A stretch of 32,000 bases of DNA, taken from Pseudodesulfovibrio mercurii. Lineage in GTDB: Bacteria > Desulfobacterota > Desulfovibrionia > Desulfovibrionales > Desulfovibrionaceae. This document shows positions 6,844 to 25,275 of this stretch, piece after piece. The number at the start of each line of letters is the position of its first letter. Position 1 is the stretch's first letter. The notes below the pieces were generated by a model, which was not told the origin of the DNA, searched no databases, and worked only from the letters and a program-made list of their open reading frames with translations. Position numbers and translations under genes: made by a program. The stretch covers positions 2,160,001-2,192,000 of the forward strand of contig NC_016803.1 of NCBI RefSeq assembly GCF_000189295.2, in the 5' to 3' direction.

Positions 6844-6870
6844 CCTGGCTCCGGGTTTTTAACAAATGTT

Positions 6871-9472: not shown

Positions 9473-10030
9473 TCAATCCAGCGAGACGTGGGGGCTGGTG
9501 GCCTGGACGAGGTCGAGGCCGGCGGTCCGGGGGGGCTGGTTGAGGGTCAGGGTCTGGCGTCGGGGCTGGGTGGCCTGGAGGAAGGCCATGCGGCGCAGTT
9601 CGAGGCGCTCGAACCGGGTCCGGCGTTGGCCGAGGAGGTTTTCGATGCGTTTGCGGCGGGCCTGTTCGGACAGGCCCGGGTCCTGGTCGGCGGGCGATTC
9701 GGGGGTTGCGGCCTCGGCGACCTGGACGGGCTGGGGTCCGGCGGGTTCGGCCTGGAGGTAGTCGGGCAGCTCGAAGGCCTCGCCGCTGACCATGGCGTTG
9801 TACTTGGCCTCGAGGACCTGGTCGGGGGTCTTGTCGTTGGCCGCGTATTCGTAGGTGTATTCGCCGATGGTGTAGGCGGTGGACACGTATTGCAGGGGCG
9901 TGAACGCCACCCCGCCCACGCTCAGGAGCGGGGCGACCACGGCGCAACCGGACAGCGGTCCGGCCGCGAACAGCACGAGGAACGCGTACAGGACCGTTTT
10001 GACGGACAGGGTCTGTGCAACCGATTTCAT
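9473..10030 (-). CDS. Hypothetical lipoprotein
   Basis: In-frame ATG at 10030 gives MKSVAQTLSVKTVLYAFLVLFAAGPLSGC (lipobox LSGC). The track start at 10129 adds a non-signal-like extension. No recognisable functional domain. Confidence 0.7.
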   Translation of the reverse strand: MKSVAQTLSVKTVLYAFLVLFAAGPLSGCAVVAPLLSVGGVAFTPLQYVSTAYTIGEYTYEYAANDKTPDQVLEAKYNAMVSGEAFELPDYLQAEPAGPQPVQVAEAATPESPADQDPGLSEQARRKRIENLLGQRRTRFERLELRRMAFLQATQPRRQTLTLNQPPRTAGLDLVQATSPHVSLD

Positions 10031-10325
10031 GGACTCTCCAGTCACTGCGAACTGTCCACGCATGCCCCCCCAGGCTTGGCAACACGGCGCAAGCATACAG
10101 CATTTCTCGACGCCGGACAATATTTGCAAAATATTTTAGCCGGTTGCCGCATGCCGCTTTGCCTGCGCAAAATATCTTAATAATATCGAGAAATTATCTA
10201 GACTTTTTAGGCCGACGAAAAGGCCGGTTTTTGTCCGGGCGCGAAAAAAATGTGGCCCGGAATCATTGAAAAAACTGCGCGGCAAGGGGCACGGCCGCCT
10301 TTACCTGGGCTGTCCAAAGAGGTAA

Positions 10326-11621
10326 TTGACGGTGCGTATGGAACAGGAACAGCCCAAGAAACGGACCCGGTCCAGGCTGGCGGCTCTGCCCCTGGCCGTG
10401 GCCTGTGCGGCGGTGCCCGTGGGGACGCTGCTGTCGAGGTTCGCCGGGCCGGGGCCGGAGAGTTCGCCGTTCCTGCCCTGGGTCATCCTGGCGGCCCTGG
10501 GCACGGTGCACGCCATATTGTTCCGGCGGTCCGGGCAGCGGCTGCGGGCCCGCTTCTTCGCCGAGCTGTGCATGTTCGCCGCGCTGTCGGCCGTGGTCGT
10601 CCTCTACCACCGCGACATCCTGTATCAATTGGAGAATTTCACGCCCATCGTGCCCGAACTGGTCCCGGTGATCATGCTCGGCTTCTGCGGGCTGTGGGTC
10701 CTGACCTTCGGCCAGCCCGACCGGGCGGCCTTCCAGCGCTGGGGCTCGGTCCTCGGGCTGCTCTGCGTGGCGGACCTGGCCGTGGAGGTGTTCATCTACC
10801 GGGCCGCGCCGTCGGTGCGCTGGATCGGGGACGCGGACCTGCTGGCCGGGCTGCTGCTGGTCTGCCTGTGCGCCTCGCTCAGGCCGGGTCCGGCCGAGGG
10901 CGGGCTGTACGAGCCGGACCAGGGCAAGCGCATCTACCGGGTGCTGATCCTGGCCGGGCTGCTGGCCACCCTGTCGCGCACCGGGCTGTTCGCGGCCGGG
11001 TGGATCTACCTCTGTTTCGGCCGGGGCGGACGGTGGTTCCGCACCGGGGTGTTCATGGCCTGCCTCGCGGGTCTGGCCGTGAGCTTCCGGCTGCCGTTCA
11101 CGCCCTCGGACCTGGGCCGGTACGTGGACTACTGGCTGTGGGCCAAGTCCCTGGCCCTGTTCTCGCGCGAACCCGGTCTGCTCATTGCCGGGCTGCCCCT
11201 GGACCAGGCCCTGCCCTTCACCTTCCCGCCCGACATGGCCCCCATCTGGGAGCGGGTCACGGGCACGCCCACCCTGTTCGGCGCGTATCTGAGCCAGGTG
11301 CAGTCCTTCTGGCTGCGCTTCCTCCTGGGCTGGGGGGCAATCCTGCCCGTGGCCTGCCTGGTCGCGCTCTTCGTCCTGGTCTTCCGGCGGCTGACGCGCA
11401 TGGGCGCGAGCCTGGCCGCCGCCCTGTTCATCCAGGGCATGTCCACGCCGCTCCTGTACGAACCGTCCACCGGGGCCATGGCCGGGCTGGGCCTGTTCCT
11501 GGCCCTGTCCGTGTACCGGGCCGCGCCCCTGGCCGGGCCGGACGGGACGCGATCCCCCGACCCGACCGACGCCCGCCCCGAAGACGATCTGGTTCGCGAG
11601 TGGGACCTGAAACCGCTCTAG
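10326..11621 (+). CDS. Polytopic membrane protein, O-antigen ligase (Wzy_C)-like
   Basis: 431-aa ORF with about 10 hydrophobic segments. The LLATLSRTGLFAAGWIYL motif resembles the SRTG-containing core of O-antigen ligase family proteins. The functional call is tentative. Confidence 0.6.
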   Translation: MTVRMEQEQPKKRTRSRLAALPLAVACAAVPVGTLLSRFAGPGPESSPFLPWVILAALGTVHAILFRRSGQRLRARFFAELCMFAALSAVVVLYHRDILYQLENFTPIVPELVPVIMLGFCGLWVLTFGQPDRAAFQRWGSVLGLLCVADLAVEVFIYRAAPSVRWIGDADLLAGLLLVCLCASLRPGPAEGGLYEPDQGKRIYRVLILAGLLATLSRTGLFAAGWIYLCFGRGGRWFRTGVFMACLAGLAVSFRLPFTPSDLGRYVDYWLWAKSLALFSREPGLLIAGLPLDQALPFTFPPDMAPIWERVTGTPTLFGAYLSQVQSFWLRFLLGWGAILPVACLVALFVLVFRRLTRMGASLAAALFIQGMSTPLLYEPSTGAMAGLGLFLALSVYRAAPLAGPDGTRSPDPTDARPEDDLVREWDLKPL

Positions 11622-11634
11622 CCCCGAGGCATCC

Positions 11635-12819
11635 ATGACGAAATTTTCCGACACGGCCCCGATCCTGGTCACCTGCCCCAGGGACATGCCCGAGTACCTG
11701 CACGGCGAGCTGACCGGGCTGGGCTTCTCCCAGGCCACGCCCCTGGACGCGGGCGTGGAGGTGCGCGGCTCGCTGAACGACTGCATGCGCCTGAACCTGT
11801 GGGTGCGCACGGGCCACCGGGTGCTCTTCGAGCTGAAGCGGTTCCGGGCCTTTGACGCGGACGAGCTGTACCGCGAGGTCAAGGCCATTCCCTGGGAAGC
11901 GTACATCCCGGCGGACGGGTATTTCCGGGTGGACGCGTCCATCCGCGACACCACGGTCAACGACGCGCGCTTCGCCGGGCTGCGGGTCAAGGACGCGGTG
12001 GCCGACCGCTTCACCGAGCGCACCGGGTCGCGGCCGGACTCCGGGCCGGAGACCAGCGGGGTCTGCCTGTTCCTGCACTGGCGCGAGAACCGGGCGACCC
12101 TGTACCTGGACACCACGGGCGAGCCGCTGCCCCGGCGCGGCTACCGCAAGCGGCCGCACAAGGCCCCCATGCAGGAGACCCTGGCCGCGGCCTGCATCCT
12201 GGCCGCGAACTGGCCCGAGCTGGCCCGTCAGGGCGGCCACTTCATCGCGCCCATGTGCGGGTCCGGGACCCTGGCCATCGAGGCCGCGCTCATGGCCATG
12301 AACGGCGCGCCCGGCCTGCTGCGCGACGACTTCGCCTTCACGCACGTGGTCGGCTACGACCCGGACGCCTGGGACGACCTGCTCGGCGCGGCCGAGGACG
12401 CGGAGGTCCCGGAGATCAAGGGACGGATCATCGCCACGGACCACGACCCGGCGGCCATCGAGGCGGCCCGCGACAACGCCCGGCTGGCCGGGGTGGGCGA
12501 CTTCATCGAGTTCGCGGTCTGCGACTTCACCCGGACCGAAGTACCCGAGGGACCGGGCGTGGTCATGCTCAACCCGGAGTACGGCAAGCGGCTGGGCGAC
12601 CAGGCCGAACTCAAGGCCGTCTACCGGGCCATCGGCGATTTCTTCAAGCAGCGCTGCGGCGGCAAGTCCGGGTTCATCTTCACCGGCAACATGGACCTGG
12701 CCAAGTGCGTGGGCTTGCGCACCAAGCGCCGCCGCGTCTTCTGGAACGCCAAGATCGAGTGCCGCCTGCTCGAATACGAGCTGTACGCCGGGACGCGCAA
12801 GGGCGACGGCCAGGACTAG
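11635..12819 (+). CDS. THUMP-domain class I SAM-dependent RNA methyltransferase (RlmL/UPF0020-type)
   Basis: 394-aa ORF with an N-terminal THUMP-like region, SAM motif I APMCGSGTLAIEAA and motif IV MLNPEYG (an NPPY variant). Confidence 0.9.
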   Translation: MTKFSDTAPILVTCPRDMPEYLHGELTGLGFSQATPLDAGVEVRGSLNDCMRLNLWVRTGHRVLFELKRFRAFDADELYREVKAIPWEAYIPADGYFRVDASIRDTTVNDARFAGLRVKDAVADRFTERTGSRPDSGPETSGVCLFLHWRENRATLYLDTTGEPLPRRGYRKRPHKAPMQETLAAACILAANWPELARQGGHFIAPMCGSGTLAIEAALMAMNGAPGLLRDDFAFTHVVGYDPDAWDDLLGAAEDAEVPEIKGRIIATDHDPAAIEAARDNARLAGVGDFIEFAVCDFTRTEVPEGPGVVMLNPEYGKRLGDQAELKAVYRAIGDFFKQRCGGKSGFIFTGNMDLAKCVGLRTKRRRVFWNAKIECRLLEYELYAGTRKGDGQD

Positions 12820-14115: not shown

Positions 14116-14625
14116 ATGTCACCCACCGCCAGGGAAATCATCGAGTGCCTGGGCCTGACGCCCCACCCCGAGGAGGGCGGCTGGTTCCGGGAGACCCACC
14201 GGGCCGACGAGACCCTTCCCCAAGAGGTCCTGCCCTCCCGCTACGACGGCCCCCGCCGCCACGGCACGGCCATCTACTACCTGCTCACCCCCGAGACGTA
14301 CTCGCACATGCACCGCCTGCAATCCGACGAGACCTTCCACTTCTACGCGGGCGGGCCGTGCCGCATGCTCCAGCTCCACCCGGACGGGTCGGGCGAGACC
14401 CTGGTCCTGGGCAACGACGTCCTCGCCGGACAACGCCCGCAGATCACGGTCCCTCGCGGCTCCTGGCAGGGACTGCGTCTGCTGCCGGGCGCGGACTTCG
14501 CGCTCATGGGCTGCACCGTCTCCCCCGGCTTCGAATACGCGGACTACGCCCACGGCCTCCGGGCCGACCTGGCCGCGCGCTACCCGGACTTCCGGGATGA
14601 GATTCTTTTGCTGACCGCCCCTTAG
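14116..14625 (+). CDS. Cupin-fold protein (DUF985 family)
   Basis: 169 aa. The pattern LGLTPHPEGGWFRETHR...TAIYYLL...HMHRLQSDETFHFYAG...WQG is typical of DUF985 cupins. Confidence 0.85.
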   Translation: MSPTAREIIECLGLTPHPEEGGWFRETHRADETLPQEVLPSRYDGPRRHGTAIYYLLTPETYSHMHRLQSDETFHFYAGGPCRMLQLHPDGSGETLVLGNDVLAGQRPQITVPRGSWQGLRLLPGADFALMGCTVSPGFEYADYAHGLRADLAARYPDFRDEILLLTAP

Positions 14626-14706
14626 GGGGAACAATCAGAAATTCATTGCCGCTGCGCGGCGATTGTCGGGCGACTTGATTCGCCACCGACGATCCGTCGT
14701 GGAAGG

Positions 14707-14734
14707 GGGTGCGCCCCCCGGAAGGGACGCACCC
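14707..14734. terminator. GC-rich hairpin between convergent genes (possible bidirectional terminator)
   Basis: GGGTGCGCCCC-ccggaa-GGGACGCACCC: 11-bp stem with one mismatch and no clear U-tract on either strand. Confidence 0.35.
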
Positions 14735-14775
14735 GGTCGAGGTGGGAAGATGGGGATGGCTGCGGGATTCGTTGC

Positions 14776-15210
14776 CTAGGCTCCGGGCATCTCGGGCCAG
14801 GTCACGACGGCCGGGAACCCGGCCTGCTGGGGCACGTCGCGCAGGGACTGGCGAACGGCCGCCCAGGCCGCCTTCTCCCCGTCGGTCAAGGGGGTGTCGG
14901 CCAGCTGGGTCCAGTCGCTCGCGACAAGCAGCCGGTCGCGCTCCATGCGCATCGCCTCGGCCTCGGCCGCGTCCCGGGCCGCCTCGTCCACCACGGCGCT
15001 GACCGCCGTCTCCCGGCAGACCAGGTCCTCGCCCTTGACCCACTCGGTCTGGTAGACGGTGAACGGCGCGCGCTTGAGGGGCATGGCCTCGTTGTAGCCC
15101 AGCTCGTCGCGCTGGGCCGGGGTCAGGTCCGCGAAGTCGCGGACGTAGCCGTCGTATTCGACGCGGGCCGGGGGCGTCCGCCGGATGGTTCCGTCATTGT
15201 ATCTCCACAT
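14776..15210 (-). CDS. Phage tail-fibre assembly chaperone
   Basis: 144 aa. The C-terminal pattern RDRLLVASDWTQLADTPLTDGEKAAWAAVRQSLRDVPQQAGFPAVVTWPEMP matches the conserved tail assembly chaperone signature (SDW...W..YRQ.LRD.P...GFP..I.WP). AAGGAG RBS present. Confidence 0.85.
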   Translation of the reverse strand: MWRYNDGTIRRTPPARVEYDGYVRDFADLTPAQRDELGYNEAMPLKRAPFTVYQTEWVKGEDLVCRETAVSAVVDEAARDAAEAEAMRMERDRLLVASDWTQLADTPLTDGEKAAWAAVRQSLRDVPQQAGFPAVVTWPEMPGA

Positions 15211-15222
15211 GATGATGCTCCT

Positions 15223-17943
15223 TTAATAACCGTTTCGGTATTTCTCGTTCCCGGCCACGGCGATGCCGACGTGCCGGTGGCCGCCCACATTGTAGCCGTT
15301 GGTCACGGACTGGATGATCTTGAACCCGTTGGACAGGAAGTCCATCTTGTCGTCCGCCGCTTCGGCACTGTACACGTCGGAGTTGACGTATTCGTCCACG
15401 GGGTTGCTCGCCGAGCGCACGGCCCAGTGCACGGGCCAATGGTACGCCCCGGCGGCGTCCTTGAGGAACAGGACCGCCTCGGGCGTCCCGCCCAGGTGGG
15501 CGACCGCGCCCCCGGCTCCGGTGGTGCCGGACCCGGTGTAGTCGATCTCCCGGTACACTCCCGCGTCCGCCCAGACCCACATCTGGTAGGCGTCCCCGCT
15601 CGCGTTGAGCGCGGCGTCGGTGGCCACGGTCACGCCCACGTCGGTGGGCGCGGTATCGTTCCAGCAGGTGGCGGAGGTGGTGGCCGCGTCGGTCGCCAGG
15701 GCGGCCAGGCTCGTGCCCCAGCCCAGGGCGTCGGTGTTGAACACCCACGGGTGGGCGGTCGCGTCGTTGGGCATGATCAGGACCGCGAAGGGGGCCGACC
15801 CCAGACCGTGGACCACGGTGCGCACCGCCCCGGTGCCGGTGTAGGTCACGATGTCGAAGCCGGATTTCGGGCCGACCCGGAGGACCTCCACGGCATAGGT
15901 GTCCCCGTCCGTGAGCAGGTCCGCCGGAATGGTGATGACGCCGCCGGACGCGGACAGGGGGGTGGTCAGTGCGACCCTCGGGGCGCCGCTCGCCGAGGCA
16001 TAGGCGTCGTTCGAGTACCCGAGCCCCGCGACCGTGGAGATGTACCGCCAGTTCTCGTCGGCATCCAGGTTCTTGAGGCGCAGGCCCCAATCCGTGTGCT
16101 CCGCGTCCCAGCCAACGGTGATGGCCCGGGGTGCTCCGGCCGGGGCCGTGAACGTGGTCACGAGCACATGGGCCGACGTGTCGAGGACGGCGGGCTCGGG
16201 TCTGCTGGCGTCGCACAGCGGGAGGAACCCGTCCGGCGGGGCGTACGCATACCCGTGCTGCCCGAAGTCCACCGACACGTAGCCGCCGTTGTATTCGCCC
16301 ACCCCGGGAACCACCGACTGCGGGGCAAAGGTCAGGGTGGGATTTTCCCCGGTCGCTGGATTGCCGCCGAGGATCCACGCGCCGTTGTGGCGGACCCACA
16401 TTTTCCCGGCCGACGGGTCCACGGCCACGCCGAAGACGTCGCCCGCGGCAAAGGGCCCGGCGTATCCGGTGTCGGTCCCGCCGACGCCCTCCGCGTATTT
16501 GAGGAACGAGGAGGCGCTCTGCACGCGGAACCCCCAGGACCCGGCGAAGTTGCCGACCACGTACCCGTATTCCTGCCCGGAGGCGGCGGCGGACGCCACC
16601 CCGAAGGTCTTGTACACTATGCCGAGGTTGGGGTCGCCCACCTCGAAGTAGAACGGGAAGTCGGCCGTCGCCGTACCGAAGACGCTTCGGTTGACCTCGC
16701 TAGGATAGCACCGGAAGGTCAGGTTCCCGTCGCTCAGGGTGCCTGTGGTGCTGCCGACGAATCCCCTGATGGGATTCAGGGTGGCGTGGTTGCTGGTCGG
16801 CGTGTCCACGGACTGACGGGCCCCGGTCAGGGTCCAGTCGTGGCCGTTGCCGGACGCGTCGTGGCCGAGATCGGCCGCGTCCGAGAAGTCCAGCAGGGTG
16901 TGGACGGCCAGGCCCTGCGCGATCAGCCACGCGGTGACGGACATGTCGATGCCCTCGACGCCGGACGTGACCACGGCCGCATTGGGGGCGTTGGCGTCGG
17001 CGGTCAGGGCGACGACGACGTCCGCCACGTCGAGGGTGACGACGGCGTCGTTGTTCCCGCCGGGCGCAACGTACTCGAACGCGCCGATGTCCCAGTTGCC
17101 GGACTCCCGGACGGCGCCCAGGATGTCGTCGGAGAAGGCCCACGTCCCGTCGGCGGCCAGGTCGGCCCCCGTGTCGCGGGCCACGGTGTCCGTGGCGTCC
17201 AGCGCGAAGTCGTCATTGTCGTAATCGGCGAAGACGATGCCGGTGGACGTGCTGTTGTTGCCGGACGCGGCATCGAGCGTCCCCGTGATCGGCGCGGAGC
17301 GGAAGATGCAGTTCTTGACCAGGGGGGTGCCGGAATCCGCCCGGAGGCCGTATCTGCAGTTGATGAACGTGCAGTTGTAGAGCGTGGCGTCGGACACGGT
17401 CTGCGTCCTGATGCCGGCGGTGTACGCGTTGGAACTTGCCGTGAAGTCATAGAAGATCGTGTTGGTCACTATGAACGAGGGCGTGGCGGTATCCTGCGAT
17501 CCGTTGATGCCGCAGACCCCCGTGGAGTCGCCGCCCGGGCCTTTGAATATGCATTTGTCTATATATGTGGACGTGCTGCGCAGATATATGCCGTTGGAAT
17601 ACGATCCTCCGGTTTTATTGAACTGCAAACCGATAATATCCAGACAGCCGAGGCCCGCCTGGTCCGCCAGCAGCAGATTGCCGCTGTCGGAGGCGTAGGC
17701 GTAAGCCTCGTCGTACACACCCATATGCCGCTCGCCGTCGGCGGCCTGGATGACCAGCCTGTTGGCCGCATCGGTCGTCCAGGACGACAGGGTCACGGGT
17801 CCGAGATTGCCGCCGCCGTAACACTCGGCGACGTGCGTATTCCCCGCCCCGACCAGGTTGGCCGCCTCGGCGTAGTCCCACGCGGCGAGGCTGGTGTAGT
17901 CGCCCCCGCCCGCGGGCTTGATGGTTGTCGTGATGGTTGCCAT
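15223..17943 (-). CDS. Multidomain tail spike/fibre: N-terminal right-handed beta-helix, LamG/SPRY-like jelly-roll, C-terminal tandem-duplicated domain
   Basis: 906 aa. The N-terminus GGGDYTSLAAW...NTIFYDF...LYNCTFINCRYGL...VKNCIFRS...DDFALD...NWDIGAFEY shows parallel beta-helix repeats. The middle segment DASGNGHDWTL...GKMWVRHNGAWILGG is LamG/SPRY-like. The C-terminus has two related units, FDIVTYTGTGAVRTVVHGLGSAPFAVLI and YREIDYTGSGTTGAGGAVAHLGGTPEAVLFL. The ATG overlaps the upstream stop (TAATG at 17941-17945). Confidence 0.85.
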   Translation of the reverse strand: MATITTTIKPAGGGDYTSLAAWDYAEAANLVGAGNTHVAECYGGGNLGPVTLSSWTTDAANRLVIQAADGERHMGVYDEAYAYASDSGNLLLADQAGLGCLDIIGLQFNKTGGSYSNGIYLRSTSTYIDKCIFKGPGGDSTGVCGINGSQDTATPSFIVTNTIFYDFTASSNAYTAGIRTQTVSDATLYNCTFINCRYGLRADSGTPLVKNCIFRSAPITGTLDAASGNNSTSTGIVFADYDNDDFALDATDTVARDTGADLAADGTWAFSDDILGAVRESGNWDIGAFEYVAPGGNNDAVVTLDVADVVVALTADANAPNAAVVTSGVEGIDMSVTAWLIAQGLAVHTLLDFSDAADLGHDASGNGHDWTLTGARQSVDTPTSNHATLNPIRGFVGSTTGTLSDGNLTFRCYPSEVNRSVFGTATADFPFYFEVGDPNLGIVYKTFGVASAAASGQEYGYVVGNFAGSWGFRVQSASSFLKYAEGVGGTDTGYAGPFAAGDVFGVAVDPSAGKMWVRHNGAWILGGNPATGENPTLTFAPQSVVPGVGEYNGGYVSVDFGQHGYAYAPPDGFLPLCDASRPEPAVLDTSAHVLVTTFTAPAGAPRAITVGWDAEHTDWGLRLKNLDADENWRYISTVAGLGYSNDAYASASGAPRVALTTPLSASGGVITIPADLLTDGDTYAVEVLRVGPKSGFDIVTYTGTGAVRTVVHGLGSAPFAVLIMPNDATAHPWVFNTDALGWGTSLAALATDAATTSATCWNDTAPTDVGVTVATDAALNASGDAYQMWVWADAGVYREIDYTGSGTTGAGGAVAHLGGTPEAVLFLKDAAGAYHWPVHWAVRSASNPVDEYVNSDVYSAEAADDKMDFLSNGFKIIQSVTNGYNVGGHRHVGIAVAGNEKYRNGY

Positions 17944-18287
17944 TACACTCTGCTCCTCAGCAGGCCGTCCGCCGACAGGACCTCCCAGGACACGGACAGA
18001 AGCCGGTCGATGGTCTCCTGCGGAATCTGCGCCAGATCGATGTAATACCGCCGTTTGTAGAGCGTCTCCACCGACAGCGGATCGCCCGTGCCTTCATCCT
18101 GATACAGGTTGACCACGGGTTGGATCAGCTCCTCCCGCGACAGGGCTTCGGGCGCGGTCGTCACCAGGAAGGACGCCTTCCCGGCAAGGTGCTCCTCGTC
18201 CCCCCACGGGAAACCATCCGGTTTGACGTCGAGGACGTCCCCGGCCAGGTAGCCGTTGCGGGCCTCCATTGCGATCAGTAATTCCAT
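17943..18287 (-). CDS. Hypothetical phage-module protein (114 aa)
   Basis: Start MELLIAMEARNGYLAGDVLDVKPDGFPWGDEE is preceded by GGAGG, which overlaps the upstream stop. The track's longer start (18353) would overlap the upstream gene. Confidence 0.7.
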   Translation of the reverse strand: MELLIAMEARNGYLAGDVLDVKPDGFPWGDEEHLAGKASFLVTTAPEALSREELIQPVVNLYQDEGTGDPLSVETLYKRRYYIDLAQIPQETIDRLLSVSWEVLSADGLLRSRV

Positions 18288-18295
18288 GCTGCCTC

Positions 18296-18571
18296 CTAAC
18301 TGGCCAACGCCATGGTTACGCGGTTGATCCGCTTGCCGTGCCTGCGCTCCCATTCCAGGCGGCGCACGCCGAAGCGGGCCCGCAGGATCAATGCGCCCTC
18401 CGTCAGGTAGGCGCGCTGGAAACAGCCGGACATGCCCATGACGTAGGCCGCCCCGCGCTTCAGGATGATGGTTGCCGCGACCTCGTAGGGATCGCCGTAT
18501 TCCCGGTGGGCCGGACCGGCCCGCAGGACAAGCACGGTCCGGCAGTCGGTGACGGGTGTCAGCGTGACCAT
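18296..18571 (-). CDS. Hypothetical phage-module protein (91 aa)
   Basis: In-frame ATG at 18571 (MVTLTPVTDCRT...) lies 1 nt after the upstream stop. No recognisable motif. Confidence 0.6.
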   Translation of the reverse strand: MVTLTPVTDCRTVLVLRAGPAHREYGDPYEVAATIILKRGAAYVMGMSGCFQRAYLTEGALILRARFGVRRLEWERRHGKRINRVTMALAS

Positions 18572-18572
18572 G

Positions 18573-18989
18573 TTAGACCACCCCGGCATTGCCGGCGGTC
18601 AGGGTGATGGACTGGATGTCCACGGCCACTGACGTCGCGAGATCGGCGTCTCCGATGATGATGTTCGCTCCGCTGCCGGTCTCTCCCACGGAGAGGTCCG
18701 CGATGAACGTGCCCGCGTTCGTGGTCAGCCTGGCCCAGGTGGCGGTCCCGGCGGTGGACGGCAGCACTGCGGCGGGAGCCGTGAGGGACAGGCTCGCGGC
18801 GGCGGCCGTTGCCTCCGCGCAGGGATAGGCCAGCGGGGCCGTGCACAACAGGTTCGTTGTCGCGCCGCCGTTGCTCGGCTGCGTGCCGTCGTAGAAGTTC
18901 AGCGCTCCGGCGGCCTCGTCGGCGTCGATCAGCTCGACGATCCGGTCCAGCAGGGCGTTCCGGACGGTGGTTGAAAATCCAACAGGCAT
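18573..18989 (-). CDS. Hypothetical phage-module protein (138 aa)
   Basis: Start MPVGFSTTVRNALLDRIVELID is preceded by AAGGAG. The protein is Ala/Thr/Gly-rich and looks beta-rich. The track start at 19268 overlaps the upstream gene. Confidence 0.7.
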   Translation of the reverse strand: MPVGFSTTVRNALLDRIVELIDADEAAGALNFYDGTQPSNGGATTNLLCTAPLAYPCAEATAAAASLSLTAPAAVLPSTAGTATWARLTTNAGTFIADLSVGETGSGANIIIGDADLATSVAVDIQSITLTAGNAGVV

Positions 18990-19003
18990 ATAATGCTCCT
19001 TAT

Positions 19004-19435
19004 TTATAAAGTGGTTGGCACCCACAGCCCCGGAACGGGGGGGGATTGCCGATAGAATGTCGTATGGTCCAGCGCGGCTTCGACAATGACCAGCCGCGAG
19101 ACGTATCCGTTCACAGCACCGGTGTATCGAATGAGCGTTTCGGTCAGCAGCTCGGCGTAGGTCGCGGCGGTGGTGGCGTGATTTCCCAACTCGACGTCCT
19201 GCTTCCAGACCGTGACGGTGTCCCCGGCCTTGCGAATTGTCAGCAGGTAGTGATGAGTCGGGTCGCACAGGGGGAAGGCGCTGTCAACCTCCGTGGGCTT
19301 CCAACCGAGCGCCATTGTCGCGTCGGCGGCCACCGCTCCGCTGGAGGAAAACCCGGATTCGCACAGGGCCGAATATCGTAAGGTCTCGGGATAAACCCCA
19401 TTCCCTCCGACGCCCGATTCCTTGGGGGTCAGCAT
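19004..19435 (-). CDS. Hypothetical phage-module protein (143 aa), possibly a LamG/jelly-roll fold
   Basis: Start MLTPKESGVGGNG lies 2 nt after the fibre gene stop, with a GGAGG RBS. The pattern HYLLTIRKAGDTVTVWKQDVELG...GYVSRLVIVEAAL looks like a lectin-type jelly roll; this fold call is inference only. Confidence 0.65.
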   Translation of the reverse strand: MLTPKESGVGGNGVYPETLRYSALCESGFSSSGAVAADATMALGWKPTEVDSAFPLCDPTHHYLLTIRKAGDTVTVWKQDVELGNHATTAATYAELLTETLIRYTGAVNGYVSRLVIVEAALDHTTFYRQSPPVPGLWVPTTL

Positions 19436-19437
19436 GG

Positions 19438-20433
19438 TCAGGCCTCCACATTTTGCAGGGACAAAATGGTTTTTCTCGCATTGTACTGTTCCACGACGAT
19501 GCGGACCTCTCCGGCGTCGGGATCGGGGGACGGCAGTGAGCCGTCGCTCTTGTAGCTCGCGGCCAGGACCAGCCCGTGCCCGGCGGGATAGACGTGGAAG
19601 ACGTAGGTCCCGTCGTAGGGCAGGGCCGCATCGGAGAAGGCGCTGTCCGCCGTCAGGGTCCAGACCACGTGGTTGCGGGCCACGGTGAGCCCGGACAGGT
19701 CGCTGCCCGCGTGGGCCTGGGGTTCGTCGCCGTACACGGCCCGCAACAGGCACGGCACGTCGCCCTTGAGGATGGCCGCGTCCGCGGGCTCCGCCCCGAT
19801 GGCGGCCAGGGCCTCGGCCTCCTCCTCGCACCCGGCCACGGTCAGGCCGACCGCGCCGAAGCCGAGGTTGAACAGGGCCTCGGTGGGATTGTCCGCGTCG
19901 GTCCCGCCCTGGCTGATGGGCACGGGCGTGGTCACCAGGCCCAGGGCGACGACGTCCTTGTTGACCAGGTCGTCGCCGGTCCCGTTCCAGGCCAGCACGC
20001 GGTCCGCATCGGGTTCGGGCAGGTTCACCCCGGTCACGGCCGAGGAGACCCGGAAGGTCAGGGCCCGGTCCAGTTTCTCGGCCAGGGCCTGGCAGATCAT
20101 GGTCAGCTTGTCCAGGGCGGCCTCGTGGGTGGCGGCCGGAAAGGCGTCGTTCTCCACGTAGTCCACCTCCTGGACCATGGCCGGTTCGCGGCGGATGACC
20201 AGGGTCTGGCCCGCCTCGGGCGGCAGGCCCATGGTCAGGGCGCCGCCGGTCTGCTCGCCGACGCCGGACAGGACGTAGTCGGTGCCCTCGGACTGGACCC
20301 ACGCCACGTCCTCGGCATCGACGAGGAGCACGCGGATGTCCTCGTTGCGCAGGAACATGAACGGGATGGCGAAGGCGCTGGTGGAGCCGTTGCCGCCGTA
20401 GATGACCTTGGTTTCGGTTGAGGCGATGGTCAT
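19438..20433 (-). CDS. Tail fibre protein with a T7 gp17-like N-terminal (tail-attachment) domain
   Basis: 331 aa. The N-terminus TKVIYGGNGSTSAFAIPFMFLRNEDIRVLLVD...TDYVLSG...TLVIRREPAMVQEVDYVENDAFPAATHEAALDKL follows the T7 gp17 N-domain pattern as I recall it (Y..DGS...F.IPF.YL....V.V......DY......I.R.T...VDF.DGS.L.A..LN....Q). The ATG overlaps the upstream stop (ATGA at 20430-20433). Confidence 0.8.
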   Translation of the reverse strand: MTIASTETKVIYGGNGSTSAFAIPFMFLRNEDIRVLLVDAEDVAWVQSEGTDYVLSGVGEQTGGALTMGLPPEAGQTLVIRREPAMVQEVDYVENDAFPAATHEAALDKLTMICQALAEKLDRALTFRVSSAVTGVNLPEPDADRVLAWNGTGDDLVNKDVVALGLVTTPVPISQGGTDADNPTEALFNLGFGAVGLTVAGCEEEAEALAAIGAEPADAAILKGDVPCLLRAVYGDEPQAHAGSDLSGLTVARNHVVWTLTADSAFSDAALPYDGTYVFHVYPAGHGLVLAASYKSDGSLPSPDPDAGEVRIVVEQYNARKTILSLQNVEA

Positions 20434-20903
20434 GCCCGGCTCCTCCCGTAGATCTTGGAGCCCAGGGACAGGATGGACCTGTCGGCCGAGCCGCCCTCGT
20501 TGATGCGCAGCATGTTCGCCTGGTTGCGGGCGGAGTTCAGGGCTGAACGGGCGTTCCGCTCGCCCTCGACGAGGACGTCCTCCTCGTCCTGGCGGTCCTT
20601 GAGCCGGTTCGCGTCCCGGACGAGCGCCGTGGACCCGGACATGGCCAGCCCCGAGCCGCCCCAGCGGGCGTTGTCCAGGGAGCGCGAGTGCTCCCGGTCC
20701 TCCCGAAGCCTGGCGGCGTCCTGTTCGGCCCGCCTTCGCAGGTCGTGGGCCGTGCCAGCGGCATCGGTCTCGATGAGCCCCGCGCGGGCCTCGGCCCTAT
20801 CGGACGCACCCTTTTCGCTGTTGCGCTCGCCCAGGAAGTCGGTGACGTCGTCGAACAGGGAGAGTCCCTGTTGGAACATCTGGGGAGAAGCGGTGTTTCC
20901 CAT
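20430..20903 (-). CDS. Hypothetical charged/coiled-coil virion-associated protein (157 aa)
   Basis: Start MGNTASPQMFQQGLSLFDD is preceded by GAGAGGA. The protein is Arg/Asp/Glu/Ala-rich. It sits between the nozzle and fibre genes, a position analogous to T7 gp13; that analogy rests on position only. Confidence 0.65.
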   Translation of the reverse strand: MGNTASPQMFQQGLSLFDDVTDFLGERNSEKGASDRAEARAGLIETDAAGTAHDLRRRAEQDAARLREDREHSRSLDNARWGGSGLAMSGSTALVRDANRLKDRQDEEDVLVEGERNARSALNSARNQANMLRINEGGSADRSILSLGSKIYGRSRA

Positions 20904-20949
20904 GGTTATCCTCTCTTTATGGTTGGGGGTTTTCCCGGTTGTTCGTTGG

Positions 20950-23046
20950 TTATTCATTGATGACGAGCTCCGGAACGATCATGAGCACGGTCATGGGCAG
21001 GGGCTGCTCCTGCACGATGGTCAGCAGCCCGTCGCGGTCCCAGCCCTTGGGGAAATTGACGATCTTGTCCCCCCGGAACGGGCCGGGGGACTGGCCCATG
21101 GGCGTGGCCGGGGAGCGGAAGTAGACGGGTTCGAGCCGGGTCTCGTCCGGCCCGATGAGGCCGCCCAGAGTGTCGTGGAAGCGGGCGGCCACCTTGGTGA
21201 TGCGCTTCCTCTTGGTCTGGGCCGTGCCCCGCTGGCTGCCCGCGTCCAGACGCATGGGCTGCAGCACGGAGCGGTAGGGCAGCCCGGCGTGGACCACCGA
21301 GGCGGGCCTGTCCAGGACCAGGGCGCCATCCGGGGACACGGTGCGGTCCGCCTGCACGGCCCCATCGGCCAGCACGGACACGGTCCGCCCGGCCAGGTGA
21401 GCCAGCCCGGACAGGCCGGACGCGGGCTCCCCCCGGTAGGTCAGGCCGCTGTCCACGAAAAAGGCGTCCTCCATGGTCCCCTCGAAGGGGCGCTCCAGGT
21501 ACTCCACGTACCGGCGGGTCTCCCCGTTGACGGTGCGCAACACGGTGATCCACAGCTCGTCGCGCTTTTCCGCGTCGTTGTAGACCGAGGCCGCGCGCTC
21601 CACCACGCCGTCGGTGACGATGCGCGACCAGGCGGCCACCTCCTGGTCCGGCACGTAGGTCAGGGCCACCAGGATGCCGTCACCGCGCACCCCGTACAGG
21701 ATGGAGTCCGGCTCCTGGACGTAGGCCAGCTGGGTCAGCCCGCCCTCGGTGATGTGCTCCGAGAGCAGGGTCAGGTCCTTGGACACGTAGGCGTCGGACT
21801 CGTAGCGGTAGGACATCTCGCGGATCTTGCGCCCGGCGCGCTGGACGTACAGGGCGGCGAAGCCCACGGCCTCGGGCCGGACGCCGGACGCCCCGCCGGT
21901 GCCCTCCTGGGCGGCCTTGACGTTGGACGGGGTGAGCGGGTCGCTGGACGAGGCGCTCAGGGTCCATTCGCCGCCCGCCGTGCCGATCCACAGGGCGCGG
22001 CGCGGAACGATGAATTCGATGGCGTTGGCCTGGCGGCCGGACAGGGTGACCTCGATGGCGTCGTCCTCCAGCGGCTCCGCCCCGGCCGGGCCGTCGGTCC
22101 GGTCGCCCACCCCGAAGCAGTCCCAGGCCGCGTCGTCGAGCACGCCGTCCTCGTCCCATATGGCCTCGAGCTGGTTGGCGCCGGGCTCGGCCGCGAAGGT
22201 CAGCGTGACGTTGCTGTTGACGGTGGCGTAGTTCCCAGTCCCCTTGTAGCGATAGTACCGGGTGGAACCGTCCGGGTGCTGCCCCTTGAGGGCGTCCCGG
22301 GCCTCGAACCCGTTCCCGGCCAGAAGGAGCACGTTGTCCCCGGCCTTGCCGTCGCGCAGCCCGTCGCCGTTGGCGTCGGCGATCTCCAGGTCACGCCAGC
22401 CGTCCAGGGGCACCTCGCGGGTCCTCAGCCGGAAGTCGGAGAACTCCCCGGTGCGCGACAGCCACAGGGTGGCCGGGCGGGACCGCGTGGCGGCCAGGAC
22501 AAGCCGCTGCTCGTAGAAGCACACGGCCGAGGGATAGTCGTTCTCCCCCCAGGCCTCGGGCTGTCCCAGGAAGGTCATCTCCTCCAGGGTCCAGTCGTCG
22601 TGGTCCACGCGGACCATCTCGCGCACCGGGTGGTCCGGGTGGACCAGGATGAGCGAACCGGCAGACTGGGCGTAGTCCAGCTCGTCGAACTCGTCGGCCG
22701 TGTAGGGGATGTCCCGGACGTAGGGCGCGCCGTCGGACAGGACCAGGCCGTGGCCGGAAAAGACGCGCATGCGCCCCTGCCCGGCCGCGTCCTCGGCGAA
22801 CTCCAGCACGTAGGTCTGCCCCGCGCTGTACTCGAAGGGGATGAGCAGGACCGGCTTGGCCTGGCCCAGGGACTCGGCCACGAACCGGAACCCGGCCCGC
22901 CGCGAGGTCCCGCCATGGGGATGGACGTGGAAATTCAGCAGGGTGCGGCACCCGTTGAAGTACTTGGAGAGGTCGGTCCTCCCCTCCAGCCTCGGCGATA
23001 TCTCGCCCGCCGTGAAATTGGTGATCGCTGGGGTGGCTATGCTCAT
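20950..23046 (-). CDS. Podovirus nozzle / tail tubular protein B-like (phage stabilisation protein family)
   Basis: 698 aa from MSIATPAITNFTAGEISPRLEGRTDLSKYFNGCRTLLNFHVHPHGGTSRRAGFRFV. This N-terminal pattern parallels T7 gp12 (..IKNLKGGISQQPDILRYPDQ....N......GLQKRPP) as recalled from memory. AAGGAG RBS lies upstream of the ATG at 23046; the track start at 23100 adds a basic, non-conserved-looking extension. Confidence 0.75.
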   Translation of the reverse strand: MSIATPAITNFTAGEISPRLEGRTDLSKYFNGCRTLLNFHVHPHGGTSRRAGFRFVAESLGQAKPVLLIPFEYSAGQTYVLEFAEDAAGQGRMRVFSGHGLVLSDGAPYVRDIPYTADEFDELDYAQSAGSLILVHPDHPVREMVRVDHDDWTLEEMTFLGQPEAWGENDYPSAVCFYEQRLVLAATRSRPATLWLSRTGEFSDFRLRTREVPLDGWRDLEIADANGDGLRDGKAGDNVLLLAGNGFEARDALKGQHPDGSTRYYRYKGTGNYATVNSNVTLTFAAEPGANQLEAIWDEDGVLDDAAWDCFGVGDRTDGPAGAEPLEDDAIEVTLSGRQANAIEFIVPRRALWIGTAGGEWTLSASSSDPLTPSNVKAAQEGTGGASGVRPEAVGFAALYVQRAGRKIREMSYRYESDAYVSKDLTLLSEHITEGGLTQLAYVQEPDSILYGVRGDGILVALTYVPDQEVAAWSRIVTDGVVERAASVYNDAEKRDELWITVLRTVNGETRRYVEYLERPFEGTMEDAFFVDSGLTYRGEPASGLSGLAHLAGRTVSVLADGAVQADRTVSPDGALVLDRPASVVHAGLPYRSVLQPMRLDAGSQRGTAQTKRKRITKVAARFHDTLGGLIGPDETRLEPVYFRSPATPMGQSPGPFRGDKIVNFPKGWDRDGLLTIVQEQPLPMTVLMIVPELVINE

Positions 23047-23389
23047 GTCTGCTCGGCTCCTTGGTTTTCGGGGACGCGCCCCGGGCTTGCGAAGGAGCAT
23101 AGCCCCGGGTTTTCGGCCGGGAGGCGATCGGGTACCGAGCGGAGCCGGGAGGTATGAAAAAACGGCTTGACGGACGTTTCGGGCCGGGATGCCCCCGCCG
23201 TCCGCGAGCCGGTTTCACCTTGTCCTGCGAATCAAGGATGTTGCGTACAAAGAAAATACGGCGGCCGAGGGGCGCGAAACACCCTCCGGGGAAGAATGGC
23301 ATCTGATCGGGCAGTAAACGACAAGCAAAAGCGGACAGGGGGTTGTTCGCCCCGGACCGGACCGGACCGGGCGGGACACGGTCCACGTA

Positions 23390-23440
23390 AAAAAAGCGAA
23401 AGCGCCTGTATTCCGGTCGGTTACACGGAATACAGGCGCT
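23390..23440 (-). terminator. Rho-independent terminator of the Zn-ribbon gene
   Basis: Perfect 15-bp stem AGCGCCTGTATTCCG (23401-23415) / CGGAATACAGGCGCT (23426-23440) with a 10-nt loop. On the minus strand it is followed by TTCGCTTTTTTT (23390-23400). Confidence 0.8.
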
Positions 23441-23464
23441 TTTCACGCCGCATGTCGGCCTGTC

Positions 23465-23722
23465 CTAGTTGGCCACTGCCGGCATGGAGGTCCGCTCGTC
23501 CTTTTCCCGGTTCAGGCGAATGACCTGGGTGGTGAAGGTGGTCTCGTCGGGCACGCAGCCGGGGCACCCCTCCGAGAGGATCACGCACCGCTCATCCAGG
23601 GTGGACGGATCGATCTTGGCCAATTTGAGGAGCTTCGTGGTCATGCCGCGCTTCCAGAGGATAGGCTGGCCGCAGCGGTGACATTCCACATACAACAGTT
23701 CCGGATCGAATTTCCTGGTCAT
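23465..23722 (-). CDS. Small Zn-ribbon-like protein (85 aa), unknown function
   Basis: MTRKFDPELLYVECHRCGQPILWKRG...SEGCPGCVPDE has two CxxC pairs. The track start at 23887 looks like a spurious extension. Confidence 0.65.
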   Translation of the reverse strand: MTRKFDPELLYVECHRCGQPILWKRGMTTKLLKLAKIDPSTLDERCVILSEGCPGCVPDETTFTTQVIRLNREKDERTSMPAVAN

Positions 23723-23913
23723 GGCTTCAAGGTAAGCTTCGGACCCGCGCTTGGCAAGGGGATGACGGTCGCGGGGAATTATTATTTCCAAGGGCTGGGA
23801 ATAGCCCCCGTCCACGCGGGGTTGACGCGGAAGGTGCGGGCTGGCACCAAACTTGATACGGTTCCCCGGACCGGAACAAACTGCCATCGCGGCATCGCAA
23901 CAAAGGGCGCACA

Positions 23914-25275
23914 GTGAAAACCACCTACCTGATCATCGGCGCGGGCCCCACGGGCCTGGGCGCGGCCCACCGGCTCCGGGAGCTCGGCGTCGCCGACTTC
24001 CTGGTCCTCGAACGCAACCCCTACGCGGGCGGCCTGGCCGCCAGCTTCCGCGACGACCACGGCTTCACCTGGGATATCGGCGGCCACGTGGTCTTCTCCC
24101 ACTACGCCTACTTCGACGCGCTCATGGACTCCCTGCTCGGGGCCGAGCGGCTGGAGCACCAGCGCGAGTCCTGGGTCCGCTCCAACGGGACCTGGGTGCC
24201 CTACCCGTTCCAGAACAACATCCGCCACCTGCCCAAGGACGCCCGCTGGGAATGCGTGGAGGGGCTGCTGCCCGGTAACCGCCCGACGACCCCGCCCGAG
24301 AACTTCGCCCGGTGGATCGACACCGTCTTCGGCCGGGGCATCGCCCGCCACTTCATGAACCCGTACAACTTCAAGGTCTGGGCCACCCCGCCCGAGCTGA
24401 TGCAGTTCGGCTGGATCGGCGAGCGGGTCTCGGTGGTGGACCTGAAGATGGTCCTGCGCAACATCATTCAGGAGCGCGACGACGTGGCCTGGGGCCCGAA
24501 CAACACCTTCAGGTTCCCCCTCCACGGCGGCACGGGCGAAATATTCCGCCGCCTGGCCGGTCGGGTGGCCGACCGCATCGAGTACGGCCAGTCCGTGGCC
24601 CGCATCGACGCCAAGGCCAAGACCGTCACCACGGAACAGGGGCTGACCGTGGAATACGAAACCCTGCTCAACACCGCGCCCCTGGACCTCCTGGTCCGGG
24701 ACTGGCTCGTCGACGCGCCCGACGCCCTGCGCGACGCTGCGGACGGCCTCGACCACAACTCGGTATATGTGGCCGGCATCGGCCTGGACAAAGAGCCCGG
24801 CGCCGCGCCCGACACCCGCTGCTGGATGTATTTCCCGGACAGCGACAGCCCCTTCTACCGGGTGACCAACTTCCACAACTACTCGCCCGACAACGTGGCC
24901 CGGCCCGGCGAACAGCTGGCCCTCATGTGCGAGACCTCCTTCTCGAAACACAAGCCGGAAAACGTCCACGAACTGATGGACCGCACCGTGCGGGGTCTGG
25001 TAAACTCCGCCCTGTTGCGCGGGGACGGGGTGGACGACATCCTGAGCCGCTGGGAGATCGCCGTGGACTACGGCTATCCCGTGCCGAGCCTGACGCGCGA
25101 CAAGGCGCTGCGCATCCTGCAACCGGGCCTGGAAGCCCTGCGCATCCACTCCCGCGGCCGCTTCGGCGGCTGGAAGTACGAGGTGTCCAACATGGACCAC
25201 TCGGTCATGCAGGGCGTGGAGTGGGCCGAGCGCATGGTCCTCGGCACCCCCGAAAAAACCTACACAGTGGATTGA
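23914..25275 (+). CDS. FAD/NAD(P)-binding oxidoreductase (amine oxidase / UDP-galactopyranose mutase-like superfamily)
   Basis: 453 aa. The N-terminal Rossmann motif is YLIIGAGPTGLGAAHRL...VLERNPYAGGLA. Substrate unknown. Confidence 0.85.
   Translation: MKTTYLIIGAGPTGLGAAHRLRELGVADFLVLERNPYAGGLAASFRDDHGFTWDIGGHVVFSHYAYFDALMDSLLGAERLEHQRESWVRSNGTWVPYPFQNNIRHLPKDARWECVEGLLPGNRPTTPPENFARWIDTVFGRGIARHFMNPYNFKVWATPPELMQFGWIGERVSVVDLKMVLRNIIQERDDVAWGPNNTFRFPLHGGTGEIFRRLAGRVADRIEYGQSVARIDAKAKTVTTEQGLTVEYETLLNTAPLDLLVRDWLVDAPDALRDAADGLDHNSVYVAGIGLDKEPGAAPDTRCWMYFPDSDSPFYRVTNFHNYSPDNVARPGEQLALMCETSFSKHKPENVHELMDRTVRGLVNSALLRGDGVDDILSRWEIAVDYGYPVPSLTRDKALRILQPGLEALRIHSRGRFGGWKYEVSNMDHSVMQGVEWAERMVLGTPEKTYTVD

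Follow-up and report, generated by a model that had tools for sequence, protein, structure and literature searches.

Gene transfer agents (GTAs) are, to our knowledge, known genetically from a handful of lineages, almost all of them siphovirus-like and only rarely of the podovirus type, and their sequences are very difficult to distinguish from those of dead prophages. In the Desulfovibrionaceae, a transducing particle named Dd1, reportedly described by Rapp and Wall in 1987, is said in reviews of GTAs to have a short tail and to carry ~13.6 kb of DNA. Dd1 of Desulfovibrio desulfuricans is listed among the GTAs with only cursory characterisation (PMC11841831). Candidate genes for it lie together in one island, Ddes_0702-0725, which includes a predicted TerS, Ddes_0720 (PMC5701242, PMC6854486). 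Here we describe a phage tail operon (positions 14776-23046, minus strand) in a stretch of 32,000 nt of Pseudodesulfovibrio mercurii (contig NC_016803.1, positions 2,160,001 to 2,192,000), hereafter the window; these 32 kb constitute the source-genome DNA examined. Based on its gene content and on its conservation in related genomes, this cluster is probably the tail locus of a particle system of podovirus origin that Pseudodesulfovibrio and related Desulfovibrionaceae inherit vertically and encode at several loci, and the chances that the dispersed system is a functional GTA (viriform) are judged to be about even.

The system resembles RcGTA in that vertically inherited phage structural genes are kept under purifying selection with no replication or integration genes, in that fibre or attachment genes lie apart from the head genes, and in the common regulation of dispersed loci, which we infer in the present case. 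RcGTA is siphovirus-like and is encoded by one main cluster of ~15 kb plus small ectopic loci, whereas the present system is of the podovirus type (PF12236 portal, nozzle, tubular A), its portal, capsid and terminase genes are mutually separated and each locus has its own regulatory module of ~90 nt; no sequence relationship was seen between the two. FpGTA of Faecalibacterium prausnitzii, reported in 2026, is also a GTA-like, non-alphaproteobacterial system proposed to be podovirus-like, and is split in two loci of which the second encodes the tail fibre and the receptor-binding protein (RBP) (PMC12946183). It belongs to another host phylum and consists of two operons with holin and endolysin, in contrast to at least five loci and no recognised endolysin here. 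Dd1, a transducing particle, comes from the same bacterial family as the present system, but its candidate genes form one island instead of scattered loci; D. desulfuricans was absent from the best 120 relatives of the portal, capsid and TerL proteins. Function has been demonstrated for RcGTA and packaging data exist for FpGTA, whereas the present system, likened to FpGTA by description, is known from its genes.

Podophages of the BPP-1-like (Rauchvirus) and HTVC010P-like groups have homologous nozzle, Bbp12-like protein, Bbp19, portal, scaffold/protease, capsid and tubular A genes, and the compact forms of the present system keep the gene order of these phages. They are autonomous, with contiguous genomes of 35-42 kb that include replication and lysis genes, whereas the genes described here are chromosomal, scattered, ameliorated and limited to morphogenesis and packaging. 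R- and F-type tailocins (pyocins) are likewise domesticated tail loci amid housekeeping genes with an exchangeable RBP and a chaperone; in contrast to the short nozzle type found here, they have long contractile or flexible tails and no head genes, while the present system retains, in related genomes, matching head and terminase genes preceded by the same module. The system appears to be neither a tailocin nor a defective prophage, and it most likely represents a previously undescribed viriform, GTA-like and of podovirus ancestry, whose module-tagged gene set is unusually fragmented. No description of it was found in the literature searched on GTAs or capsids in Pseudodesulfovibrio or Desulfovibrionaceae.

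The GC content of the window is ~66% and real genes are distinguished by a GC content at third codon positions (GC3) of 0.8-0.96. The tail operon is formed by nine co-directional open reading frames (ORFs) with GC3 of 0.74-0.95, which in the order 5' to 3' are g1, g2, g3, g3b, g4, g5, g6, g7 and g8. Relatives of the nozzle were collected by a scan of one genome per species, which yielded 17 loci, including those of P. karagichevae (L002), 'Desulfovibrio' caledoniensis (L003) and P. pelocollis (L008), several others being from Pseudodesulfovibrio metagenome-assembled genomes (MAGs). The features of the operon are the following:

23095..23173, minus strand: conserved upstream module, ~90 nt, recognised by intergenic alignment and nhmmer
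20950..23046, minus strand: g1, tail nozzle (tail tubular protein B), 698 aa, matching PHROG 376 and PDB 8ck1_A
20430..20957, minus strand: g2, small charged internal virion protein (Bbp12-like), 175 aa, matching PHROG 418
19438..20433, minus strand: g3, fibre anchor, 331 aa, matching PHROG 1640 and the 8ck1 tail fibre
19004..19435, minus strand: g3b, stand-alone copy of the N-terminal domain of a sister-genome RBP, 143 aa, assigned by identity to the L002 RBP
18573..18989, minus strand: g4, small virion structural protein, 138 aa, matching PHROG 3758, part of a window-only cassette
18296..18589, minus strand: g5, ORF of 97 aa, GC3 0.88, part of the window-only cassette
17943..18287, minus strand: g6, ORF of 114 aa, GC3 0.83, GGAGG ribosome-binding site in front, part of the window-only cassette
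15223..17943, minus strand: g7, receptor-binding spike, 906 aa, matching Pfam Beta_helix and DUF7483
14776..15210, minus strand: g8, tail-fibre assembly chaperone, 144 aa, matching Pfam Phage_tail_APC (E 3.1e-26) and PHROG 4912

The genes are tightly packed, with overlaps of 8 nt between g1 and g2 and of 17 nt between g4 and g5, an ATGA junction at 20430-20433 (g2/g3), a TAATG junction at 17941-17945 (g6/g7) and gaps of 2, 14, 8 and 12 nt with AAGGAG or GGAGG ribosome-binding sites. The first-pass annotation of this stretch had described nine co-directional minus-strand ORFs with intact reading frames, both of these junctions and a base composition similar to that of the flanks, all of which hold with the ORF calls, the GC3 values and the computed GC content; the tight spacing and the ribosome-binding sites also stood, but a gap of 46 nt that it had listed is absent with the present ORF calls. 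Its assignments of the first, third, eighth and ninth genes as nozzle-like protein, carrier of a gp17-like fibre attachment domain, beta-helix spike and fibre-assembly chaperone, respectively, were all supported by the profile matches detailed below.

The nozzle g1 matched PHROG 376 'tail protein' (E 2.6e-180) and PDB 8ck1_A 'Tail Nozzle' (E 7.8e-95), is 33% identical to Bbp13 of BPP-1 over 98% of its length and 43-48% identical to the tail tubular B proteins of HTVC010P-type pelagiphages, and is full-length and intact in all related loci. g2 matched PHROGs only, and weakly (PHROG 418 'internal virion protein', E 2e-6); it occupies the position of bbp12 in BPP-1 and is conserved at 42-71% identity under looser constraint, with a ratio of nonsynonymous to synonymous divergence (dN/dS) of 0.42-0.71. 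In g3, residues 1-126 only match PHROG 1640 (E 4e-36) together with 17 other tail-fibre families, and the N-terminus also matched the tail fibre of 8ck1 (E 3e-15), the same solved virion that provided the nozzle match; g3 is 57-78% identical across all loci of the group (dN/dS 0.24-0.41). These matches indicate that the N-terminal 126 residues of g3 are the tail-binding domain of podovirus fibres, and the C-terminal part presumably docks the exchangeable RBP. The spike g7 matched Pfam Beta_helix (5.7e-7) and DUF7483 (1.6e-31) as well as PHROG 19943; residues 1-343 correspond to a right-handed beta-helix and residues 344-906 to a SPRY/ConA-like and DUF7483 distal part, which is ~25% identical to virion proteins of marine podophages. 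The chaperone g8 closes every complete related set of tail genes (54-75% identity). g4 matched PHROGs only (PHROG 3758, E 1.8e-22) and is ~32% identical to structural proteins of Vibrio podophages, while no family match was obtained for g5 (Pfam, NCBIfam, PHROGs, PADLOC) or for g3b and g6 in the libraries run. Sheath, tube and tape-measure families were not matched by any of the nine proteins (Pfam, PHROGs). Altogether, the operon encodes the distal half of a short tail, comprising nozzle, internal protein, anchor, exchangeable RBP and chaperone.

Among the proteins of the window there is no head gene, integrase or repressor and no homologue of tubular A, in agreement with the first-pass annotation, which had listed portal, capsid, terminase, integrase and the gp11-like adaptor as missing. 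No tRNA was found in the window, its Rfam scan gave no match and the PADLOC scan gave no match to a defence system.

In L002-L009 and L013 the gene order is ZnR (encoding a zinc-ribbon-like protein, see below), ~400 nt, nozzle, internal protein, 331-aa anchor, variable RBP and chaperone, and Cupin_5 and EamA come after the chaperone on the opposite strand. The tail genes adjoin Cupin_5-EamA in L002-L007 and L009, that is, in at least seven other genomes of the Pseudodesulfovibrio group; Cupin_5 is adjacent to them in L011 and EamA lies nearby in L012. In total, the tail locus is located at an orthologous chromosomal site in at least nine genomes/species. The 10 kb upstream of the nozzle in these relatives contain only cellular genes, encoding either FAD oxidase, M24 peptidase and Kup, or GGDEF/PAS/EAL proteins and PfkB, or an MscS-like channel. 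The 2.1-kb nozzle ORF is intact, with 68-91% identity in the Pseudodesulfovibrio group and 58-91% including further loci, and its identity to the window protein was compared with that of its neighbours:

L002: nozzle 84%, Cupin_5 84%, EamA 88%
L003: nozzle 85%, Cupin_5 83%, EamA 83%
L004: nozzle 71%, Cupin_5 70%, EamA 68%
L007: nozzle 70%, Cupin_5 63%, EamA 67%
L009: nozzle 68%, Cupin_5 72%, EamA 74%
L011: nozzle 60%, Cupin_5 62%
L012: nozzle 58%, EamA 50%

Over 28 pairs, nozzle and flank identities correlated with a Pearson r of 0.82, compared to 0.90 for two host genes against each other. Among the three closest genomes the synonymous divergence (dS) of the nozzle, 0.24-0.33, equals that of Kup, FADox, EamA and RlmL, 0.22-0.35, and nozzle values of 0.26-0.33 likewise agree with 0.23-0.47 for the flanks; these values, being calculated by the Nei and Gojobori 1986 method (NG86) and compressed by the extreme GC3 bias, are used only in comparison with the flanking genes and not as absolute values. 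The dN/dS of the nozzle (0.20-0.36) is within the range of host genes (0.15-0.37), and GC3 is fully ameliorated at 0.93-0.95. Across the cupin-to-FAD-oxidoreductase interval, which had been singled out for comparison in the first-pass annotation, the tail gene set is present and syntenic in the relatives, with dN/dS similar to that of the host flanks. The co-divergence of nozzle and flanks excludes a recently inserted element; reinsertion at a common hotspot was also considered and rejected, since nozzle dS equals flank dS and no integrase, att site or tRNA was found. This evidence indicates that the tail locus has been inherited vertically with the host under purifying selection.

Downstream of the anchor the pattern of conservation is different. 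The RBP varies from 315 to 906 aa across loci, and residues 344-906 of g7 are 35% identical to residues 144-701 of the L002 RBP, while g4-g6 and the beta-helix N-terminus of g7 are found in the window only, being absent from all other loci compared. The first 143 residues of the L002 RBP (701 aa) share 69% identity with g3b, whose identity to the L005 RBP is 49%; the dS of g3b is 1.5 in comparison to ~0.25 for the flanks and its GC3 is 0.74, and the excess of dS indicates that this fragment was imported by recombination. The dS of the chaperone (0.5-0.9) is also well above that of the flanks. A conserved chassis (nozzle and anchor) is thus combined with horizontally exchanged recognition cassettes, a typical pattern of systems selected for target range, and the RBP mosaic and raised dS are consistent with continuing selection on target recognition.

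Whether the head genes that are missing from the window lie elsewhere, without nozzle and fibre genes, was a question raised in the first-pass annotation, and portal, capsid, terminase and adaptor genes were indeed found at separate sites, in related genomes that carry the tail locus:

Portal locus: charged protein of ~77-108 aa, portal, Bbp19 and scaffold/protease-like protein of 280 aa
Capsid locus: capsid protein and 81-aa PHROG-18004 protein, between Dus/cyclase and Lactamase_B/SNase genes
Terminase locus: TerL with a protein of 120 aa, surrounded by cellular genes
Adaptor locus: tubular A, standing by itself a few kb past EamA in L004-L006

With the portal of L010 as query, T7-type portals (PF12236, 570-590 aa, 62-66% identity) were detected in nearly every named Pseudodesulfovibrio species and also in Salidesulfovibrio, Paucidesulfovibrio, Humidesulfovibrio and D. 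aminophilus; they are present in D. caledoniensis, P. karagichevae and P. pelocollis and on the same contigs as L004, L007 and L011. The capsid protein (PF19821, 276-277 aa, 69-81% identity) has a similar distribution, which includes D. caledoniensis and the contigs of L004 and L011. TerL (PF03237) shows 76-83% identity to the query, and single clusters at 90% identity span several species, P. pelocollis among them. As a separate observation, the TerL clusters P0270, P0246, P0242 and P0260 keep at least 90% identity between Pseudodesulfovibrio species whose nozzles and housekeeping flanks are ~70% identical, a degree of constraint that is unusual in a gene of phage origin.

The portal and capsid loci keep their flanks from one species to another. 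The portal locus of D. caledoniensis and P. thermohalotolerans has a GGDEF gene on one side and Carb_kinase, TusA, Sulf_transp and RlmN on the other; the L004 MAG has the Carb_kinase-TusA-RlmN side in common, its other flank being a CBS-domain gene. Tubular A is located apart from the nozzle in L004-L006, L010 and L011. In the D. caledoniensis chromosome (4.148 Mb) the nozzle is located at 3.904 Mb, the capsid gene at 3.996 Mb and the portal at 0.105 Mb, these loci being 90, 256 and 347 kb apart, and in P. thermohalotolerans TerL and portal are separated by 271 kb. No integrase or replication gene was detected beside any locus examined. The 96-108-aa protein before the portal and the 120-aa protein after TerL had no family match (Pfam, NCBIfam, PHROGs and PADLOC scans of small proteins).

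Less dispersed arrangements were also observed. L010 contains, in compact form, the same set as the head-containing loci L014-L017 described below. In L011 the order is intermediate: portal, Bbp19, scaffold, capsid, an 82-aa protein and tubular A, then cellular genes that include Cupin_5, then the nozzle, followed by an iron ABC transporter and FmdE and then by anchor and RBP. One Maridesulfovibrio MAG carries three identical copies, L014-L016, which like L017 have TerL and portal (PHROG 332) upstream of the nozzle; L014-L016 also encode a capsid protein (PHROG 3437) and tubular A (PHROG 394), their nozzle being 579 aa long, while L017 has a scaffold-like protein and its capsid gene was not detected. 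L014-L016 give the impression of a prophage that is active or has multiplied recently and whose relatives include the ancestor of the domesticated system. In the L017 nozzle (10001-12097), a segment similar to residues 209-329 of the window nozzle is placed after a segment similar to residues 324-506; the reading frame is unchanged and an insertion domain is apparently permuted.

Evidence that links the dispersed loci comes from the conserved upstream module, which was missed in the first-pass annotation. In the window it consists of box 1, CCGTCAAG, at 23164-23173, and box 2, GGCCGAAAACCCGGGGCTATGCT, at 23096-23118; it ends ~50 nt upstream of the g1 start codon and lies between the terminator of ZnR and g1. 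The aligned loci have an invariant GTCAA box and a GGCCGAAAACCGGGGCTATGCT-like box, the general form being CCTGTCAAG, ~60 nt, then GAAAACCGGGG(C/T)TAT(G/A)CT. Nozzle, portal operon, capsid gene and tubular A of the same genomes all have this module in front of them, as do the terminase loci. An nhmmer profile built from 11 instances and run on 523 kb of loci and the window gave 25 matches at E<0.01, each directly upstream of a structural locus in the right orientation (E 2e-11 for the window). About 14 of the 25 were outside the training set, and they included the nozzles of L002, L005, L006, L008, L009, L012 and L013, the tubular A of L005, the terminase operon of L007 and, in L010, the genes for tubular A, portal and capsid. 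P. thermohalotolerans-type loci yielded three more matches, in front of the portal operon, of the capsid gene and of two paired small genes in the terminase locus. No nhmmer match was detected in the head-containing prophages L014-L017. Since the module is present in L010 and was not found in those prophages, L010 can be considered a compact form of the domesticated system and not an ordinary prophage. Based on its position and conservation the module is presumed to be a promoter or regulatory site; its presence at all loci would imply a common regulator, and it may be what lets the scattered loci stay co-controlled.

Additional observations were made on the module. Weak partial second copies lie between the ZnR terminator and the main module in L004 (9695-9753), L005 (9701-9761) and L006 (9042-9088). 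In the terminase locus of P. thermohalotolerans (L026, 8271-9025) the module precedes a gene for a 135-aa protein, with no family match (NCBIfam only), and a gene for a 70-aa protein. By inspection the former is holin-like, with three hydrophobic segments, and the latter is a coiled coil with a C-terminal hydrophobic tail; the pair possibly has holin or lysis functions and is separated from TerL by an opposite-strand gene for a TPR lipoprotein.

Altogether, a GTA-based mechanism can be proposed in which the copy of the ~90-nt regulatory module at each locus would have made dispersal possible. A regulator acting on the module would co-induce all loci; capsid protein, scaffold and portal would form procapsids to be filled by TerL; tubular A, the nozzle g1, g2, the anchor g3 and the spike g7, folded with the aid of g8, would complete the tail on the portal; and the particles would leave the cell and bind their targets by means of the swappable spike. 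Since the loci are dispersed and no replication, integration or excision genes accompany them, particles would carry at best a fraction of their own genes, and this partial load together with the extreme conservation of the terminase would point to packaging of host DNA, as in a GTA. The capacity of the capsid, by analogy with related phages, may be ~45 kb or less. In its full form, the hypothesis of an undescribed family of podovirus-derived GTAs whose genome is split into at least five module-tagged mini-loci (terminase, portal and scaffold, capsid, adaptor and tail), with the window as the tail locus carrying a phage-exchanged RBP cassette that sets recipient range, is regarded as evenly balanced between right and wrong. 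It corresponds to the second of three options considered in the first-pass annotation, a satellite locus of a dispersed GTA-like system, which is now favoured by the separate head loci and the common module in relatives, the GTA role itself being what we infer.

Several observations weigh against this interpretation. The head loci were observed in relatives (85% nozzle identity), while the genome of the window is represented by the 32 kb examined, and among the TerL matches listed none is named for D. caledoniensis or P. karagichevae. Dispersal is modest in some genomes, as in the L004 MAG, where a stretch of 55 kb holds nozzle, adaptor, capsid and portal. The constraint on g2 is weak, a sigma-70 consensus scan of 14300-24000 gave no promoter and the module fits no standard sigma-70 consensus. 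Neither an endolysin nor conserved large proteins of the ejection or internal-core type were identified; the gap in ejection proteins would be acceptable if uptake of the DNA were left to the machinery of the recipients, as is the case for RcGTA. Finally, the evidence on particles, their content and transfer comes from gene sequences. In relation to ejection, a 1986-aa protein was considered as a conserved candidate and rejected as a core component, as it occurs beside TerL in one MAG and has one distant relative. In that MAG, which is the one of L007, it follows TerL and a 119-aa gene (L020, 1041-7001) and could be the counterpart of Bbp10, the giant internal protein of BPP-1; in P. thermohalotolerans it is not beside TerL, and its sole detected relative is a metagenome contig (34% identity).

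Of the alternatives, the one that survives best, although unlikely, is that the dispersed loci build a co-regulated particle with another role, such as killing or competition, a decoy for phage receptors or other defence, or a carrier of protein cargo. It would fit the failure to find conserved ejection proteins and the swapping of RBPs as in bacteriocin-like tailocins. However, TerL is the most conserved component (at least 90% between species), suggesting that DNA packaging is the selected activity, and we know of no killing mechanism for short non-contractile tails, an objection that follows from what is established for tailocins. There were also no PADLOC matches, and with the terminase highly conserved the defence reading was dropped.

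It is highly improbable that the tail locus is a head-independent device (a podovirus-type tailocin, an adhesin or a surface structure) and that the head genes derive from an unrelated element, which is close to the stand-alone short-tail structure of the first-pass annotation. The tail locus does have its own module and terminators, with no head gene within 32 kb, and the tubular-A adaptor is encoded apart from it. Nevertheless, the same module stands before the portal, capsid, adaptor and terminase loci in the same genomes, so that co-conserved head and packaging genes carry it too, and in L010 and L011 the nozzle still adjoins, or lies close to, the capsid, portal and adaptor genes of its own lineage. 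Moreover, podovirus fibres, as in T7, dock at the junction of adaptor and nozzle, and a nozzle without adaptor would be an incomplete platform.

The decaying prophage remnant, also put forward in the first-pass annotation, would be the functionless right arm of a podovirus left after a deletion, in line with the lack of head genes, integrase and repressor in the window, the resemblance of g3b to a fragment of a severed RBP gene and the weak constraint on g2. Against it, the locus is orthologous in at least nine species with the nozzle ORF intact, the nozzle has the same dN/dS and dS as the host flanks, the regulatory module has been conserved and GC3 is fully ameliorated; since orthologous position, co-divergence with host genes and purifying selection exclude such decay, this explanation retains hardly any probability. 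The least credible proposal, a satellite-like tail cassette that puts new tails on the capsids of podophages, infecting or resident, and so changes their host range or sabotages them, would draw on the head-containing podophages with related nozzles (48-56% identity) present in the family (L014-L017) and on the division of head and tail supply between elements known from capsid-forming phage-inducible chromosomal islands (PICIs), but it is contradicted by a chromosomal, vertically inherited locus with no integrase or excision functions and by cognate head loci with the same module in the same genomes.

With regard to its surroundings, the tail locus of the GTA-like system is flanked by ordinary genes on both sides, as the first-pass annotation had stated and family matches of the flank proteins corroborated: CusCBA-type efflux, SpoIIE-HAMP, RlmL, EamA and Cupin_5 on one side and FAD amine oxidase, M24 peptidase, Kup, thioesterase and SfsA on the other. 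Three further features border the operon:

23465..23722, minus strand: ZnR, 85 aa with two CxxC motifs (zinc-ribbon-like), recognised by tblastn conservation
23389..23446, minus strand: intrinsic terminator of the ZnR gene, a long hairpin with U-run, recognised by fold energy and terminator scan
14707..14734, no strand assigned: GC-rich 12-bp hairpin between the convergent g8 and Cupin_5 genes, fold energy -32.4 kcal/mol, z -1.9

ZnR, which had been missed in the first-pass annotation, is conserved at 66-96% identity at the equivalent position in L002-L008 and L013 (tblastn) and is directly upstream of the nozzle operon in every locus of the Pseudodesulfovibrio group with a long enough contig. 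Its dN/dS is 0.08-0.30, and Pfam, NCBIfam and PADLOC gave no match; ZnR may either regulate the particle system or be an unrelated host gene. The hairpin of its terminator (23396-23446) has a fold energy of -40.9 kcal/mol (z -5.1), none of 200 shuffles folding as well, and is kept in most aligned loci, although it is not evident in L008 and L013. This terminator is predicted to insulate the tail operon from upstream transcription. The strong terminator reported upstream of the cluster by the first-pass annotation therefore exists, but it ends the ZnR gene, and the module of the operon lies between it and g1; the hairpin reported downstream, with its 12-bp GC stem, exists as well and is likely a bidirectional terminator. 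In D. caledoniensis, an insertion of ~1.6 kb between the FAD oxidase gene and ZnR (L003, 7650-9300) carries a gene for a 363-aa protein without Pfam match and is absent from the window (23722-23914) and from P. karagichevae. At the other end of the window, positions 2-6858 (minus strand) contain a CusCBA-type heavy-metal efflux operon that is complete except for a truncated pump and encodes an AcrB-family pump, a 715-aa membrane-fusion protein (HMBD and DUF3347) and an outer-membrane factor.

The series formed by the compact L010, the partly split L011 and the loci 90-350 kb apart in D. caledoniensis suggests a stepwise fragmentation of a prophage and may serve as a model for the dispersal of viriforms. 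It also carries a warning for annotation, as 'headless' phage tail islands can be parts of split systems and not remnants or tailocins. The common upstream module would provide a built-in diagnostic to list the whole regulon and to find its regulator, and the gene transfer reported in Desulfovibrio in 1987 would become genetically approachable in related organisms. If the proposed role is correct, Pseudodesulfovibrio would offer a genus-wide, sequence-defined GTA candidate in environmentally important sulfate reducers of sediment, deep biosphere, corrosion and mercury-methylation settings.

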